A stretch of 64,000 nt of DNA from Escherichia coli (lineage in GTDB: Bacteria > Pseudomonadota > Gammaproteobacteria > Enterobacterales > Enterobacteriaceae): assembly GCF_003334355.1 (NCBI RefSeq), contig NZ_QOWP01000009.1; one strand, given 5' to 3'. Both the position numbers and the translations under genes were made by a program. The stretch's first letter is position 1. Each line of letters opens with the position of its first letter. The notes under the pieces are model-generated. The model was not told the origin of the DNA. It ran no database searches and worked only from the letters and a program-made list of their open reading frames with translations. This document shows positions 19,986 through 27,424 of the stretch, piece by piece.

Positions 19986-22451
<2,466 letters not shown>

Positions 22452-22465
22452 TTTCACTAATAAAT

Positions 22466-22497
22466 AGAACGGGGCCAAAGGGTCCCGTTTTTTTCGC
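22466..22497 (+). terminator. intrinsic terminator of the glg operon (AACGGGGCCAAAGGGTCCCGTT + T7)
   Basis: Hairpin plus run of 7 T immediately after the glgP stop. Confidence 0.7.
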
Positions 22498-22566
22498 CAT
22501 CATTTCGGAAAAGTGTCCAGAAGGGGCAAGGGGACTCGGGGAGTATAATTTCGCCATTCAGAAAGA

Positions 22567-22983
22567 ATGGAAAGAATAATGCAAAACAGAAAATGGATTT
22601 TGACCTCGCTGGTAATGACTTTTTTCGGCATCCCCATTCTGGCGCAGTTTTTGGCGGCGGTTATTGCCATGCTGGGTGTCGGACTTGCCGGTATTATTGA
22701 AGTTTGTAATATCTTTATCACGCCAACAATTTACCTTCTGCTCAACGTCTTTATGCTGACGCTGGGGGCGATAATAATATTTTTCTCTGGTCGCGTGTGG
22801 GCCGGTGATAGCGCGCCAGAAAACAGAGAAATAGCCGTCTGGCGGCAATGCTTTTTTCTCTTACCCGCGCTATTAACCCTGGTTGGCTGGATAATCACGC
22901 TACATCTGGCAGATTATCAATTTCGCCAGATGGGAGCTGGTTGGTTGGCAAACCTTATGCTTCCCTGGTTGGCGTTTTTTTAG
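22567..22983 (+). CDS. hypothetical small polytopic membrane protein (138 aa, about 4 predicted TM segments)
   Basis: ORF track; strongly hydrophobic helices (ILTSLVMTFFGIPILAQFLAAVIAMLGVGLAGII...); ends at TAG 22981-22983; not recognised as a named family. Confidence 0.5.
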   Translation: MERIMQNRKWILTSLVMTFFGIPILAQFLAAVIAMLGVGLAGIIEVCNIFITPTIYLLLNVFMLTLGAIIIFFSGRVWAGDSAPENREIAVWRQCFFLLPALLTLVGWIITLHLADYQFRQMGAGWLANLMLPWLAFF

Positions 22984-23012
22984 TCTCATTAGTGGGTGGT
23001 GAGTACTGGTGG

Positions 23013-24083
23013 ATGGTCATTATTCCCGTTGGGGCGCATATCAGTTTTTCGCTGGGATACGCCTGGCCGACCAGATATCCTTTATCCGGCACGTCCGGAC
23101 TACGTTGCCGTAACTTACTCCTGTTTCTACTTCTCTTACTTGGTATTGTCGCCGGGTATCAGGCCCATTTATATAAGCAGCAAAATCCTGGTGTCGGTGT
23201 ACGCGAAAATATTGATATCTGGGCCTGGCGACCCGATAAACTCAATAATCGACTGACGCCGCTGCGTGGCAAACCGCAAATTCAGTTTAGGCAAAACTGG
23301 CCGCGAATCGATGGCGCCACGGCTGCGTACCCAATTTATGCTTCTGCATTTTATGCATTAAGTGTAATACCAGAGGATTTTCACGTTTGGGATTATCTGG
23401 AAAACTCTCGTACGCCAGAAGCATATAACAAAATCGTTAAGGGCGATGCTGATATTATTTTCGTGGCGCAACCTTCCGGTGGGCAAAAAAAACGTGCAAA
23501 GGAATCTGGTGTCACTTTGCTGTACACCCCCTTTGCCCGTGAAGCATTCGTTTTCATCGTCAATGCGGATAATCCGGTTAATTCCCTGACTGAACAACAG
23601 GTGCGTGACATTTTCAGTGGTGCAATTACCAATTGGCGTGCTGTTGGCGGTAACGATCAGGAGATCCAGACCTGGCAGCGCCCGGAAGACTCTGGCAGCC
23701 AGACAGTGATGCAATCACAGGTCATGAAAAATGTCCGCATGATCTCGCCGCAGGAAACGAAAGTGGCAAGCGTGATGGAGGGAATGATTAAAGTCGTTGC
23801 CGAATACCGTAATACAAACAACGCAATAGGCTATACCTTCCGCTATTACGCGACGCAAATGAATGCTGATAAAAATATAAAATTGCTAGCGATTAACGGT
23901 ATTACACCGACGGCGGAAAACATTCGCAACGGCAAATATGCGTACATCGTCGATGCATTTATGGTGACGAGAGAAAATACAACGTCAGAAACACAAAAAC
24001 TGGTCGAATGGTTTTTAACGCCGCAGGGGCAGAGTCTGGTAGAAGATGTGGGATATGTGCCGCTGTATCCAACAATGGAATAA
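23013..24083 (+). CDS. PstS-family (phosphate-binding-protein-like, PBP_like_2) periplasmic binding protein with N-terminal hydrophobic anchor; start uncertain (ATG 23013 or GTG 22992)
   Basis: ORF track 22848..24083 (its first ~48 codons overlap the upstream membrane ORF out of frame and are discounted). Motifs DGATAAYPIYASAFYAL, RPEDSGSQ, AIGYTFRYYA, LLAINGITPTAENIRNG parallel PstS GAGATFPAPVY / RADGSGTS / AIGYVEYAYA / PTEENF. Confidence 0.7.
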   Translation: MVIIPVGAHISFSLGYAWPTRYPLSGTSGLRCRNLLLFLLLLLGIVAGYQAHLYKQQNPGVGVRENIDIWAWRPDKLNNRLTPLRGKPQIQFRQNWPRIDGATAAYPIYASAFYALSVIPEDFHVWDYLENSRTPEAYNKIVKGDADIIFVAQPSGGQKKRAKESGVTLLYTPFAREAFVFIVNADNPVNSLTEQQVRDIFSGAITNWRAVGGNDQEIQTWQRPEDSGSQTVMQSQVMKNVRMISPQETKVASVMEGMIKVVAEYRNTNNAIGYTFRYYATQMNADKNIKLLAINGITPTAENIRNGKYAYIVDAFMVTRENTTSETQKLVEWFLTPQGQSLVEDVGYVPLYPTME

Positions 24084-24108
24084 CGCTCGAGAGAAAGGAA
24101 TCAGCGAG

Positions 24109-25101
24109 ATGAATAAATTCACCGGTGTTTTACTATTAGGCACGGCGTTACTGGCGGGATGTGTCGACCGGGAAGGGTACTATAACAGCGTTAGGGAAGA
24201 AGAGAGCCATGGACTGACGTCTCTGCGGGGGCAACCTGCATTACGTTACAGCGATGATTGGTCAAGATGGCCGAGAGTGTACGGCGCTACAGCCTTATAC
24301 CCGCTGTATGCCTCCGCGTATTATAAATTAGTACCCGAGCCAAAAGATAAGGATCGAACCTCGCTGGCCTGGCAGGCGTATGGTTTGCAGCAAACCCGAA
24401 CAGCTGAAGCCTACGATAGTCTGATTAAAGGTTCCGCGACGGTTATTTTTGTTGCACAACCGTCGGAAGGACAGAAAAAACGTGCAGAAGAAGCGGGTGT
24501 TAAACTGAAATATACCGCTTTCGCCCGCGAAGCCTTTGTCTTTATCGTTGATATTAATAACCCGGTAAATTCTCTCTCTGAGCACCAGGTTAAAGATATT
24601 TTTAGCGGCAAAACTAGCCGCTGGAATAAAGTAGGTGGTAGTGACGAACATATAAAAGTCTGGCAGCGCCCTGAAGATTCTGGAAGCCAAACGATTATGA
24701 AGGGGTTGGTTATGCAAGACACCCCAATGCTGCCAGCTAAAAAATCCACTGTGATTGATCTTATGGGCGGTTTAATTACTGAAGTTGCCGACTATCAAAA
24801 CACGCCATCTTCCATTGGGTACACCTTCCACTATTACGTCACTCGTATGAATGACAATATGCTCAAAATGCGCAAGCAGATTAAACTTTTGGCTATAAAT
24901 GGCGTTGCGCCTACCGAGGAAAATATCCGCAACGGCACTTATCCATACATTGTGGATGCCTATATGGTGACGCGTGAAAATCCCACGCCGGAAACGCAGA
25001 AATTTGTTGACTGGTTTATAAGTCAGCAGGGGCAACAGTTGGTAGAGGATGTGGGGTATGTGCCGCTGTATGAAGCATCCCCCGAATCATCAGGACAATA
25101 A
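24109..25101 (+). CDS. PstS-family binding-protein paralog, predicted lipoprotein (330 aa)
   Basis: ORF track 24046..25101; ATG at 24109 gives MNKFTGVLLLGTALLAGC (lipobox LAGC); roughly 60% identical by eye to the upstream paralog across the mature domain. Confidence 0.75.
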   Translation: MNKFTGVLLLGTALLAGCVDREGYYNSVREEESHGLTSLRGQPALRYSDDWSRWPRVYGATALYPLYASAYYKLVPEPKDKDRTSLAWQAYGLQQTRTAEAYDSLIKGSATVIFVAQPSEGQKKRAEEAGVKLKYTAFAREAFVFIVDINNPVNSLSEHQVKDIFSGKTSRWNKVGGSDEHIKVWQRPEDSGSQTIMKGLVMQDTPMLPAKKSTVIDLMGGLITEVADYQNTPSSIGYTFHYYVTRMNDNMLKMRKQIKLLAINGVAPTEENIRNGTYPYIVDAYMVTRENPTPETQKFVDWFISQQGQQLVEDVGYVPLYEASPESSGQ

Positions 25102-25388
25102 TGATGAATATAATCAGACTTTATATTTATCCGTTATTTCTCGGCTTTGTTATTGTGCCGTTGTTGGTGTGGCCGATGGTGGTTGCGCTGGCTGCTTGTA
25201 TTATCACGCTGAGTTTTCTGGGGGAAATGCTGTTCTCAATCCCGCTCATGATCAGGCGTATTTCACTTCTGCAATTACAACTTTGGTTATCGGCTGAATA
25301 TGCGCTTTTCTTCTGTGTAATGTGTTGCGTTGGTTGGCAATTTACTCGTAGAACTCAATCTGAATTGAAAAGCAGGCTCCATTGTTGA
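25101..25388 (+). CDS. hypothetical small membrane protein (95 aa); may be the N-terminal part of a gene interrupted by an in-frame stop
   Basis: ORF track; ATG overlaps the stop of the preceding gene (TAATG); hydrophobic helices. Confidence 0.4.
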   Translation: MMNIIRLYIYPLFLGFVIVPLLVWPMVVALAACIITLSFLGEMLFSIPLMIRRISLLQLQLWLSAEYALFFCVMCCVGWQFTRRTQSELKSRLHC

Positions 25389-25703
25389 TTGGTATTCGCA
25401 CCGATCTATTTATGGTTGATCCTCTGGAATATCATTTTTTACATCGCGCCAGCGAAAATTGCGTTGCTGGAAAGTATCCGCAATTTCTTTCTGCTTGTTG
25501 TCTGGCTACCCCTGAATTTTTCGCCATTTTGGCCTCAGCCGTGGACGGATTTTATCGGTCCAATAAGCGCACAGCTTGGTTTTGCGTTGGGATATTATTG
25601 CCAGTGGTGCAGCAAAAATAGATGCCAGATACGGAAGTTGAGTGAGTGGGGAACGTGCTTAAGTTTTGTTACGTTGGGTATGATGGCGTGGGCTTTGCGG
25701 TAA
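25389..25703 (+). CDS. hypothetical small membrane protein (104 aa); same frame as 25101..25388, separated from it by a single stop codon
   Basis: ORF track; both ORFs are in frame 0 and contiguous, so one stop codon splits a roughly 199-codon membrane-protein reading frame. Confidence 0.4.
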   Translation: MVFAPIYLWLILWNIIFYIAPAKIALLESIRNFFLLVVWLPLNFSPFWPQPWTDFIGPISAQLGFALGYYCQWCSKNRCQIRKLSEWGTCLSFVTLGMMAWALR

Positions 25704-25754
25704 TTCCCTGAATCAAAAAGTAGGTCAGATTGTTGACAACGTGGCGCTTTGTTC

Positions 25755-25860
25755 ATGCCTGATGCGGCGCGAACGCCTTATCAGGCCTACAAAATCATGC
25801 AAATTCAATATATTGTATAAACAACGTAGGCCAGATAAGCGTAGCGCATCTGGCAGTTTT
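25755..25860. repeat. REP/BIME-type palindromic units (GCCTGATGCGGCGCGAACGCCTTATCAGGCCTAC; GTAGGCCAGATAAGCGTAGCGCATCTGGC)
   Basis: Typical enterobacterial REP sequences read from the intergenic region downstream of convergent genes; coordinates approximate. Confidence 0.6.
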
Positions 25861-25918
25861 TTGGTTTGTCATCAGTCTCAGGTCAGATTGAAATCTGACC
25901 TGGCCACCTTACATTAAA

Positions 25919-27424
25919 TCACGACGCCAGCGACAGCTTCTGCTGCGTATACTCCACCAGCCACTGACTCACACGAGATTGTTGATCCGCATTTAGCCAC
26001 ATGCCTTGTTTTGTGCGACGCCACAGGGCGTCGTCGGCGCGGCGGACCCATTCGTGATCCACCAGGTATTTCAGCTCCGCTTCGTAGAACTCATGACCGA
26101 AATCTTCCCCGAGATCGCTTACCGTTCCCGCATTGCCGAGCAGCAGCTCGCTGTTGCTGCCGTAAGTGCGAGCGTAATGACGCGCCAGCGATTCAGTCAG
26201 GAACGGATAGCGGCGGCGCAGGCGAGCGGCATAATCGTCGCGGTCGCCTTCAATGGCGCCACCCGGTAGCACACTCTCTTTCGTCCATGCCGGGCCAATA
26301 CCCTGATAATACGGCGTTAGTTTTTCCAGCGCATGTTCCGCCAGTTTTCGGTAGGTGGTCAGCTTACCGCCGAATACCGACAGCAGCGGTGCTTTGCCAT
26401 TTTCATCATGAATATCAAGGGTGTAATCACGGGTAATAGCCTGCGGCGAGTCGGACTCATCATCACACAGCGGACGCACACCGGAGTAGGTCCAGACGAT
26501 ATCGTCACGGCTTAACTGCTTTTTAAAGTGCGTGTTATACACATTCAGCAGGTAATTGATTTCACTCTCTTCAATCTTCACCGCTTTCGGATCGCCTTTG
26601 TACTCGACATCGGTAGTGCCGATGATGGAAAACTCGTCCATCCACGGGATCACGAACACAATACGTTTATCTTCGTTTTGCAGAATGTAGGCTTGCTTCT
26701 GGGTATGCACGCGCGGCACCACAATATGGCTGCCTTTGATCAGGCGAATGCCATAAGGCGAAGGCAGATGCATCCCGTCGTCGAAGAACTGTTTCACCCA
26801 CGGGCCGGTGGCGTTAACCAAGCCGCGCGCTTGCCAGCTATATTTTTTGCCGGTATCGATATCTTCCGCTTCCACAATCCACAGGCCGTTTTCGCGGCGA
26901 GCAGAGGTGGCGCGAGTCCGAGTAAGCACTTCGCCGCCTTTACGCACCACCATCTGGGCGTTGGCGAGTACCAGACGGGCGTCGTCTACCCAACAGTCAG
27001 AATATTCGAATCCGCGCTTAATTTCCGGTTTTAACACTGAATTTGCGCCAAAACGCAAACCAGTTGATCCCGGCAAGCTGGTGCGTTTACCCAGATGATC
27101 GTACATAAACAGACCAATGCGAATCATCCACGCCGGGCGCAGATGCGGACGATGTGGCAGGCGAAAACGCATCGGGAAGGCGATATGCGGGGCCATTTTC
27201 AGCAGCACTTCACGTTCAGCCAGCGCCTCGCTGACCAGGCGGAATTCATAGTGCTCAAGGTAGCGCAGGCCACCGTGAATGAGTTTTGAACTGGCGGAAG
27301 AGGTCGCGCAAGCGAGATCCTGCGCCTCCAGCATCAGCACGGATAAACCGCGTCCAGCGGCGTCTGCCGCGATACCAGCACCATTGATGCCGCCCCCTAT
27401 CACAATCAGATCTTTGGTTTCCAT
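25919..27424 (-). CDS. glpD: aerobic sn-glycerol-3-phosphate dehydrogenase (501 aa)
   Basis: ORF track 25919..27439; ATG at 27424 gives METKDLIVIGGGINGAGIAADAAGRGLSV (FAD-binding fold). Confidence 0.97.
   Translation of the reverse strand: METKDLIVIGGGINGAGIAADAAGRGLSVLMLEAQDLACATSSASSKLIHGGLRYLEHYEFRLVSEALAEREVLLKMAPHIAFPMRFRLPHRPHLRPAWMIRIGLFMYDHLGKRTSLPGSTGLRFGANSVLKPEIKRGFEYSDCWVDDARLVLANAQMVVRKGGEVLTRTRATSARRENGLWIVEAEDIDTGKKYSWQARGLVNATGPWVKQFFDDGMHLPSPYGIRLIKGSHIVVPRVHTQKQAYILQNEDKRIVFVIPWMDEFSIIGTTDVEYKGDPKAVKIEESEINYLLNVYNTHFKKQLSRDDIVWTYSGVRPLCDDESDSPQAITRDYTLDIHDENGKAPLLSVFGGKLTTYRKLAEHALEKLTPYYQGIGPAWTKESVLPGGAIEGDRDDYAARLRRRYPFLTESLARHYARTYGSNSELLLGNAGTVSDLGEDFGHEFYEAELKYLVDHEWVRRADDALWRRTKQGMWLNADQQSRVSQWLVEYTQQKLSLAS

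Follow-up and report, generated by a model that had tools for sequence, protein, structure and literature searches.

A strain-variable cassette between glgP and glpD of Escherichia coli encodes two copies of a PstS-like binding domain paired with a six-helix membrane domain

In the Escherichia coli DNA analysed here (64,000 nucleotides, hereafter the window), the 3.4-kb interval between the end of glgP (22451) and the end of the minus-strand gene glpD (25919) carries a cassette of three genes that is variable between strains and encodes two copies of one two-part device (Table 1). The device consists of a PstS-like periplasmic oxyanion-binding domain and a family-specific six-helix inner-membrane domain. 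The two parts are fused in gene 1 and split in the second copy, where gene 2 encodes the binding domain as a lipoprotein and gene 3 encodes the membrane domain alone. We hold this anatomy as a whole with high confidence. In the window, genes 1 and 3 are disrupted by inactivating lesions and only gene 2 is certainly intact, so the device is largely inactivated in this genome. An earlier sequence-only reading of the locus overlooked that the membrane and binding parts form one device, which is the most informative feature of the locus.

Table 1. Features of the interval between glgP and glpD (window coordinates).
Feature	Position	Strand	Description	Source
Terminator-like hairpin 3' of glgP	22468..22494	+	9-bp stem AACGGGGCC/GGGTCCCGTT, one G-U pair, then T run	Sequence inspection
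Candidate promoter -10 hexamer TATAAT (perfect)	22544..22549	+	No good -35; 30 nt 5' of gene 1 start	
Gene 1	22579..24083	+	Fusion of six-helix membrane domain and PstS-like periplasmic binding domain; intact length 501-502 aa	PGAP CDS in ATCC 8739
Gene 1 membrane domain	22579..23214	+	Residues 1 to ~212; six long helices; P19 invariant, W104 near-invariant	
Gene 1 PBP_like_2 (PstS-like) domain	23304..24020	+	Pfam PF12849, E 1.3e-29	
Gene 2	24109..25101	+	330-aa PstS-like lipoprotein, signal MNKFTGVLLLGTALLAGC; intact in window	
Gene 3	25101..25703	+	200-aa membrane protein; free-standing paralogue of gene 1 membrane domain	PGAP CDS in ATCC 8739
REP element pair	25751..25833	.	Between gene 3 and glpD 3' end	Sub-threshold Rfam matches and sequence

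Gene structure and lesions were defined by aligning the window with the 99.9% identical record of strain ATCC 8739 (CP022959), in which PGAP annotates three CDS (502, 330, and 200 aa). The five plus-strand ORFs reported earlier are present at their positions (22567-22983, 22848-24083, 24046-25101, 25101-25388, and 25389-25703), but the real count is three genes. A 1-bp deletion (GGG>GG) in a G run at about 22970 shifts the frame of gene 1 and yields two ORFs, one of 138 aa (membrane) and one of 411 aa (binding protein with hydrophobic anchor). The supposedly separate 138-aa polytopic membrane protein is actually the N-terminal domain of the first binding protein. Gene 3 is cut by a TGG>TGA change at 25386-25388, and what had been taken for two small membrane ORFs is one gene split by this premature TGA. 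Gene 2 starts at ATG 24109 (MNKFTG...LLAGC), not at the ORF start 24046, and its product has the same sequence as WP_001032214.1, found in strain B and O157:H7.

Both lesions are private to this genome. The gene 1 deletion is absent from all 685 complete E. coli genomes matching that stretch, and the gene 3 TGA is absent from all 226 matching its stretch. Pseudogenization in all strains, which the sequence-only reading had envisaged as a possible outcome, was not found; intact copies of the cassette occur in ATCC 8739, strain B, ST648, and O157:H7. In K-12-type strains the interval is reduced to the yzgL stub, which corresponds to the first 74 codons of gene 1, in agreement with the statement of the sequence-only reading that K-12 has a short spacer with this pseudogene.

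Intact E. coli alleles are under purifying selection, with dN/dS of 0.1-0.3 over dS of 0.3-0.8 (0.10-0.14 for gene 1, 0.105 for gene 2, and 0.17-0.33 for gene 3). The range of 0.10-0.33 indicates that these are real genes, not chance ORFs. Functionless, decaying remnants of a former transporter operon have been suggested for the Salmonella orthologues, where SL1344_3494/3495 were termed "remnants of a transporter complex" (PMC12445098). Consistent with decay are the yzgL reduction, a gene 1 frameshift in E2348/69, and the two broken genes in the window. However, the low dN/dS at this level of divergence, the conservation of the architecture across five phyla-level groups, and the invariance of binding-site residues make it very improbable that the cassette is such a remnant. 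A defense or immunity island was also considered because of the variability of the cassette; PADLOC gave no match for any of the six proteins that the two main cassette types encode. In the alternative cassette, the proteins of 236 aa and 255 aa have no NCBIfam or Pfam match, and PHROGs matches were confined to a cyanophage-type PstS auxiliary gene family.

Both binding proteins are divergent members of the PstS family. PBP_like_2 (PF12849) matches the two large ORFs with E values of 1.3e-29 and 1.1e-29 and the intact gene 1 product with 2.2e-29, and the gene 1 binding domain and gene 2 share 57% identity over 292 aa. Scores against the NCBIfam PstS subfamily TIGR02136 (122.6 and 118.9 bits) are both under its curated cut-off of 206.6 bits. 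The AF2 model of gene 1 (pLDDT 84.8) has the two-lobe PstS fold; all of the top 40 Foldseek matches in the PDB are phosphate-binding proteins (E down to 1.7e-15), led for the gene 1 binding domain by 9l8j, 4gd5, 4q8r, and 1twy. The proposal of tandem PstS-family paralogues is thus supported for both proteins by Pfam, PDB profile matches, fold search, and invariant anion-contact residues.

The closest solved relatives are PBP-1 of Clostridium perfringens and other "ptsS_2"-type PstS proteins (4q8r and 4gd5; also the Sll0540 structure 9l8j and 1twy), with E values of about 1e-26 and TM-scores of 0.78-0.80. PBP-1 contacts phosphate through S11, T12, S13, S41, S59, R125, S129, G130, and T131 (PMC5381212). 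These residues correspond to A247, T248, A249, T279, the Q298-P299-S300 turn, R368, S372, G373, and S374; the HMMER alignment is explicit for the R..SGS block and T279, and the other correspondences come from AF2 secondary structure and motif positions. A247, T248, A249, S300, R368, S372, and S374 do not vary among 38 family members, and T279 and G373 are at least 90% conserved. The window proteins resemble PBP-1-type PstS in that the selectivity position is probably Ser and not Asp, and in sharing the R..SG(T/S) block. They differ in the first motif (A-T-A versus S-T-S in PBP-1) and in carrying an extra membrane domain, and they score under the TIGR02136 cut-off. PBP-1 serves a genuine ABC transporter as its binding component.

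E. coli PstS of the PstSCAB-PhoU system (PDB 1ixh, 2abh, and 9k3x) has the same Venus-flytrap fold, at about 16% identity to the window proteins. Its contacts Thr10, Ser38, Arg135, and Ser139-Gly140-Thr141 would match T248, T279, R368, and S372-G373-S374, judging from AF2 secondary structure, motifs, and established knowledge of PstS. PstS is a free periplasmic protein, whereas the window proteins have a six-helix membrane domain or a lipid anchor and lack pstCAB linkage, a Pho box, and an equivalent of Asp56. The position of Asp56 (Ser59 in PBP-1) is taken by Q298 or S300. Classical PstS owes its selectivity for phosphate to the acidic Asp56, and the ligand here could therefore be another oxyanion.

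The missing Asp would also suit a binding domain that recognizes, instead of free phosphate, the phosphate moiety of some envelope constituent (lipid-linked phosphate, LPS, teichoic acid, or a phospholipid head group) that the six-helix domain presents at the membrane surface. A short conserved linker places the binding domain right above the membrane domain, and the family has Gram-negative as well as Gram-positive members. However, solved PstS proteins bury the anion fully and leave no space for an ester substituent (PMC5381212). The window proteins have contact residues of the same kind, and no envelope-biogenesis genes recur beside the family. We regard an envelope ligand as most unlikely.

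The six-helix membrane domain is confidently folded in the predicted model and would cross the membrane six or seven times. It has no match among solved structures and no similarity to ABC permeases or their fold, and it has neither a cytoplasmic module nor conserved charged residues inside its helices. With the domain profile as query, 65 of 70 matches of at least 400 aa carried the binding-domain motifs, so the domain occurs almost only fused to the PstS-like binding domain. The family signature is an N-terminal multi-helix domain, a conserved linker, and a binding domain with REAFVF, QRPxxSGSQ, and GY(T/S)FRYY. Intact gene 1 fits this signature, and its product and 37 relatives align over their full lengths. 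Among relatives from many phyla, almost every one has three to seven N-terminal transmembrane segments, and the combined architecture is found across Proteobacteria, Firmicutes, Campylobacterota, Spirochaetes, and Synergistetes.

Gene 3 has no NCBIfam or Pfam match, and its homologues were seen in Escherichia only. Its product matches the gene 1 membrane domain over the full length by hhalign (probability 97.6%, E 3.5e-12), and Foldseek with the gene 1 membrane model as query recovers an Escherichia stand-alone protein. Direct BLASTP of gene 3 against the gene 1 membrane domain was marginal (E 0.033), and the relationship emerged only from profile comparison and fold search. Because both proteins are hydrophobic, compositional bias may have raised the hhalign score, but the fold search points the same way.

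As the sequence-only reading had it, the second binding protein carries a lipobox: LLAGC, of the L-[AS]-[GA]-C type, ends the gene 2 signal peptide, and lipidation is predicted. By the Lol-avoidance +2 rule, the Val after the lipidated Cys suggests sorting to the outer membrane. A lipoprotein at this predicted location could not easily dock on a partner in the inner membrane. The membrane domain is folded, nearly exclusive to the family, and kept as a selected gene beside a lipoprotein that needs no further anchor; we infer from this that it is a functional partner of the binding domain and not a mere anchor.

An intrinsic-terminator-like hairpin follows glgP, which suggests that the cassette is transcribed from its own promoter and not by read-through from glgP; the TATAAT hexamer upstream of gene 1 may serve as its -10 element. 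A consensus scan for promoters and terminators gave results no better than shuffled sequence and failed to list this hairpin. Rfam gave only sub-threshold matches, to the REP-derived families naRNA4 and ES036. No Pho box (CTGTCATAWAWCTGTCAY, up to three mismatches) was found in the whole window by a consensus scan of limited sensitivity, nor by eye in 22452-22578.

No gene for a PstC/PstA permease or PstB ATPase lies between glgP and glpD, as had been remarked before, and the absence extends to the neighborhoods of 79 related loci from many phyla. Clustering of the neighbors of these loci gave no conserved partner family, and the immediate neighbors are unrelated housekeeping genes. In several bacteria more than one PstS is served by one translocator, and E. 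coli encodes pstSCAB elsewhere in the genome, outside the window. The window proteins could accordingly be accessory binding proteins that capture phosphate at the membrane surface and hand it over to PstC/PstA, with the six-helix domain as an elaborate anchor, and the PstS fold and conserved anion site agree with such a role. We think this unlikely, however. The family never adjoins pstCAB in the 79 loci, PstS-type scavenging is Pho-regulated whereas no Pho box was found here, and the membrane domain is family-specific and well folded. A lipid anchor would be enough for gene 2, yet a separate membrane-domain gene is under purifying selection.

Our preferred but tentative interpretation is an orphan oxyanion receptor of the periplasm whose effects pass through its own membrane domain and more likely serve signaling than uptake. 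In the periplasm, the binding domain would capture phosphate or a closely similar tetrahedral oxyanion, and the loaded domain would act on its cognate membrane domain instead of a PstCAB-type ABC translocator. Rather than bulk uptake, the more likely output would be a signal, or a regulatory contact, that reaches a partner protein within the membrane; signaling is favored because the membrane domain has no cytoplasmic module or conserved intrahelical charges. In five Paenibacillus species, there is a 4-nt overlap between the family gene and the stop of a gene for an orphan membrane histidine kinase, and in six Sporosarcina, Psychrobacillus, and Oscillospiraceae loci a gene for an XRE-type HTH protein lies directly upstream. 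These associations and the absent Pho box are hints of signaling; each of the two gene associations, kinase and HTH, occurs only in a small number of related lineages, however, and could reflect a single event. Neither a kinase nor any other signaling gene is present at the enterobacterial loci.

Binding-protein-dependent sensors include the PstS-CtpL chemoreceptor, LuxP-LuxQ, and TorT-TorS (reviewed in PMC8050422). The proposed logic would be the same, in that ligand occupancy is reported to a membrane protein and not to a transporter, and the kinase translationally coupled to the family member in Paenibacillus adds to the likeness. Unlike the partners in those systems, the six-helix domain has no recognizable signaling module, so a sensor of this kind would require a third component. 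OpuA/GlnPQ-type ABC importers likewise join a binding domain covalently to a polytopic membrane domain and exist in fused and split versions, but here the membrane domain has no ABC-permease similarity and no ATPase gene is associated. By analogy with TRAP/TTT systems, the device might instead be a self-contained ATPase-independent transporter, in which the six-helix domain (perhaps as a dimer) would form the path and the tethered domain would deliver the anion. The exclusive one-to-one pairing of the two domains, fused and split, fits this idea, and the genes stand alone in most genomes, which indicates that no dedicated neighbor is needed. We nevertheless consider such a transporter doubtful.

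The orthologous TM-PstS gene of Salmonella Typhimurium, SL1344_3495, lies at the same glgP-glpD junction and encodes a protein of about 50% identity. It is called enigmatic and its function is acknowledged as unknown (PMC12445098), in line with the sequence-only reading, which likewise took the function as not known; no function has been published. The Salmonella gene is co-transcribed with an Fe-alcohol dehydrogenase gene, is repressed by the IclR-like SL1344_3500, and belongs to a xylonate-utilization island; the gene downstream of it encodes a YbbD_head lipoprotein, whereas here a PstS paralogue and a membrane protein follow. The Fe-alcohol dehydrogenase adjoins the family in Salmonella, Klebsiella, and one Clostridia MAG, but no joint cluster was formed and the adjacency was treated as coincidence.

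For annotation, this genome has three genes rather than five at the locus, and two of them are pseudogenes. The annotation "phosphate ABC transporter substrate-binding protein", which family members carry everywhere, is probably misleading, and the design of a membrane domain with a PstS-like domain is widespread and unstudied. In enterobacteria, PstSCAB-PhoU-PhoR and Pit are regarded as the routes of phosphate sensing and uptake. It is conceivable, though on balance we doubt it, that the cassette represents a previously unrecognized binding-protein-dependent membrane device of many phyla, with deeply diverged alleles at an E. coli recombination hotspot, that acts either as a phosphate sensor independent of PstSCAB-PhoU-PhoR, reporting to intramembrane-sensing kinases or other membrane proteins, or as an ATPase-free transporter. 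If the family does sense or move phosphate by another route, it would be a new component of phosphate homeostasis in E. coli O157:H7, strain B, Salmonella, Klebsiella, and many Firmicutes, and this would explain the place of the Salmonella copy in an operon important for gut colonization.

In the window, glgP ends at 22451 and glpD (minus strand) ends at 25919, and the interval between them has a G+C content of 43-50%, compared with 50-59% for the two flanking genes. The window is 99.9% identical to the E. coli ATCC 8739 record NZ_CP022959, in which PGAP annotates three CDS in the interval (502, 330, and 200 aa). Base-by-base comparison with this record identified three differences within the interval (table). 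The sequence-only reading had described five plus-strand ORFs here. All five were found where they had been placed, but comparison with NZ_CP022959 indicates that they represent three genes. The "138-aa polytopic membrane protein" and the "411-aa binding protein with a hydrophobic anchor" are one gene cut by the 1-bp deletion (gene 1, encoding a membrane domain followed by a PstS-like domain, TM-PstS), and the "two small membrane ORFs" are a single 200-aa gene cut by a TGA stop codon (gene 3). The interval and the family assignment of that reading were correct, and its gene structure was not. The true start of the lipoprotein gene (gene 2) is the ATG that opens it in the table. For gene 1, the PGAP CDS begins at an ATA codon (22576 in window coordinates) directly followed by the ATG at 22579. 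GGAAAG precedes this ATG, and a further in-frame ATG upstream, at 22567, is likewise open. No Pho box was found upstream of gene 1 or elsewhere in the window.

Features of the glgP-glpD interval, with pairwise dN/dS among intact alleles
Feature	Position	Location	Basis	dN/dS
Hairpin and T run	22468-22494	downstream of glgP	read in sequence	
Perfect TATAAT	22544-22549	between glgP hairpin and gene 1	read in sequence	
Gene 1, whole	22579-24083			0.10-0.14
Gene 1, membrane domain				0.17-0.24
Gene 1, binding domain				0.07-0.08
1-bp deletion	~22970	gene 1, G run	vs NZ_CP022959	
Gene 2	24109-25101			0.105
Gene 3	25101-25703			0.17-0.33
G>A, TGG to TGA	25388	gene 3	vs NZ_CP022959	
G>A, Val to Ile	25404		vs NZ_CP022959	
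REP element pair	25751-25833	between gene 3 and glpD	below-threshold matches to REP-derived Rfam families naRNA4 and ES036	

Among complete E. coli genomes, the 685 that match the 60 bases around the deletion site all lack the deletion, and the 226 that match the 61 bases around the stop all lack the G>A substitutions of the window. Thus, both lesions are either private to the window genome or assembly errors, and gene 2 is the only gene certainly intact there. Two more single-base differences from NZ_CP022959 flank the interval, at 21496 and 27897; glgP and glpE have one each. Of the five differences counted over 9.5 kb, the 3.4-kb cassette accounts for three, two of them inactivating. The window genome is therefore a close relative of ATCC 8739 or another assembly of it, rather than NZ_CP022959 itself.

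Strain B, an ST648 isolate, and O157:H7 have annotated intact copies of the genes. By pairwise Nei-Gojobori estimation, intact alleles are under purifying selection, and these are real genes. The only paper found on any orthologue of the cassette genes reports that SL1344_3494-3496 of Salmonella Typhimurium make up an operon under repression by the IclR-like SL1344_3500; it describes SL1344_3495 as PstS-like and considers the pair enigmatic, "remnants of a transporter complex" (PMC12445098). That the cassette proteins are non-functional remnants is highly improbable given the purifying selection on intact alleles. The gene 3' of the Salmonella TM-PstS gene (L007 9564-10109, the SL1344_3494 equivalent) looks fusion-like. 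Its first ~45 residues match the N-terminus of a 236-aa family, and the remainder is a lipoprotein-like segment followed by a YbbD_head (PF26610) domain, which is a separate gene in Klebsiella.

The full three-gene form is present at ≥80% query coverage in 883 of 5,426 complete E. coli genomes. Other forms of the junction were seen in evenly spaced rows of the coverage ranking and in fetched examples. STEC1590 has gene 1, then unrelated 236-aa and 255-aa proteins, then a gene 3 homologue; E2348/69 has a frameshifted gene 1 with the 255-aa protein and a gene 3 homologue; and in LF82 and KE55, gene 1 is replaced by a fimbrial operon. The K-12-type junction is a stub in which yzgL comprises only the first 74 codons of gene 1, so the sequence-only reading was right that K-12 has only a short spacer with a yzgL pseudogene. 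K-12-type strains retain the first ~370 bases of the interval and the REP part. The alternative cassette (L005 5148-6628; L101 2564-4044; L008 9838-10542 in comparison loci) encodes the 236-aa and 255-aa proteins, which are cytoplasmic and have no match in Pfam, NCBIfam, or PADLOC. The 236-aa protein is also conserved in Klebsiella after the TM-PstS gene, and both genes persist in LF82-type strains despite the fimbrial operon in place of gene 1.

The glgP-glpD locus is mosaic: in a comparison of ATCC 8739 with strain B, dS is 0.31 for gene 1 and 0.003 for neighbouring glgP, with genes 2 and 3 identical or almost identical. Gene 1 alleles from the window and four comparison loci (L001, L002, L003, L005) differ by dS 0.26-0.43, with flanking glgP at 0.003-0.13. 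The E. coli gene 1 alleles are very old, and recombination breakpoints lie within the cassette.

Both binding domains belong to the PstS family by fold and motif. They match Pfam PBP_like_2 (E ~1e-29), score 119-123 bits against TIGR02136 (under its 206.6-bit cut-off), and share 57% identity with each other. A 38-member family profile searched against the PDB retrieved phosphate-binding proteins only (best 4q8r and 4gd5, E ~1e-26). Foldseek with the AlphaFold2 model of the intact gene 1 product (pLDDT 84.8) returned only PstS-type structures at the top (9l8j, 4gd5, 4q8r, 1twy, then E. coli PstS). In Clostridium perfringens PBP-1, phosphate is contacted by S11, T12, S13, S41, S59, R125, S129, G130, and T131, with Ser59 in place of the classical selectivity Asp (PMC5381212). 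The gene 1 counterparts are A247-T248-A249, T279, the Q298-P299-S300 turn after strand 3, R368, and S372-G373-S374; the R..SGS block and T279 come from an explicit HMMER alignment, and the other correspondences from AlphaFold2 secondary structure and motif positions. Most of these anion-contact positions are invariant across the 38 members. The binding domains therefore very probably bind a tetrahedral oxyanion, judging from these residues; phosphate is the obvious candidate, perhaps with lower selectivity than in classical PstS. Recognition of an envelope phosphate ester is the least probable reading of the cassette.

Residues 1 to ~212 of gene 1 are predicted to form six long helices. Modelled alone, this domain is well folded (pLDDT 89, pTM 0.86). 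Gene 3 is homologous to it: hhalign gave a full-length match (probability 97.6%, E 3.5e-12), and Foldseek with the gene 1 membrane model retrieved an Escherichia stand-alone protein. The gene 2 signal peptide, VLLLGTALLAGC, looks by eye like the final helix of gene 1, LLLLLGIVAGYQ. The cassette thus carries one pair twice over, as a fusion in gene 1 and as separate proteins in genes 2 and 3. The membrane gene occurs in stand-alone form only within the genus Escherichia. All significant AFDB50 matches to the membrane domain are of the same family, and this structure search found no known relative outside it. Its profile matched 194 cluster representatives among 1.84 billion proteins, and binding-domain motifs were present in 65 of 70 matches of ≥400 aa. 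The domain is poorly conserved (mean column identity 29%); P19 is invariant and W104 almost so.

Full-length relatives occupy the same glgP-glpD junction in Salmonella and Klebsiella, and others are found in the ruvC/yebB-like peptidase-ruvA gap of Salmonella enterica, in Leclercia, and in a Budviciaceae island. Second-site paralogues lie at L019 7001-8497 and L020/L021 7001-8497 (Salmonella enterica ruvC site; Leclercia PPK2 site). In Leclercia, a polyphosphate kinase 2 (PPK2) gene directly follows the paralogue, which may point to phosphate metabolism. With one genome scanned per species, >571 family loci were found, in Firmicutes, Campylobacterota, Betaproteobacteria, Pasteurellaceae, Cardiobacterium, Treponema, Synergistaceae, and others, and 3-7 N-terminal membrane segments are predicted for almost all members. 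A termite-gut Helicobacteraceae MAG (L044 55-6891) has four tandem members on the same strand, of which three have 5-6 TM segments and the fourth is a short form, so tandem amplification of the family is not peculiar to E. coli.

Neighbouring ORFs of 79 family loci were clustered; no gene family recurred beyond local synteny, and PstC, PstA, and PstB were absent. The earlier interpretation, PstS-family binding proteins with no ABC partners, was to this extent supported. Hand-off of ligand to PstCAB is an unlikely role for the cassette. By NCBIfam search, 20 immediate neighbours are unrelated housekeeping genes. Two associations are exceptions to the lack of recurrent neighbours. Five Paenibacillus species have an orphan membrane histidine kinase that overlaps the start of the family member by 4 nt, and at six loci in Sporosarcina, Psychrobacillus, and Oscillospiraceae the family member is directly preceded by an XRE-type HTH gene. 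The Paenibacillus kinase (L047, L050, L052, L067, and L089, ~4620-7110, with htpG downstream) spans the membrane several times in its N-terminal region and has no response regulator next to it.

The membrane domain is specific to the family, hardly ever occurs apart from the binding domain, and persists under selection as a gene of its own. Six helices are needless for anchoring alone, as the lipid anchor of gene 2 suffices, yet the domain is kept, suggesting that the binding domain may act on its own membrane domain. Signalling is tentatively favoured over transport as the output because the helices have no conserved charged residues, their number differs between phyla, there is no transporter-like fold, and regulatory genes are the only recurrent neighbours. 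A self-contained transporter operating without an ATPase is, like hand-off, rather doubtful. A review on signalling roles of binding proteins includes PstS-CtpL and nothing resembling the architecture of this family (PMC8050422). In the cassette, a PstS-family binding protein is joined to a membrane domain of its own and has no ABC transport partner. Its proteins were already annotated, and the window copy, mostly inactivated, represents a widespread family.
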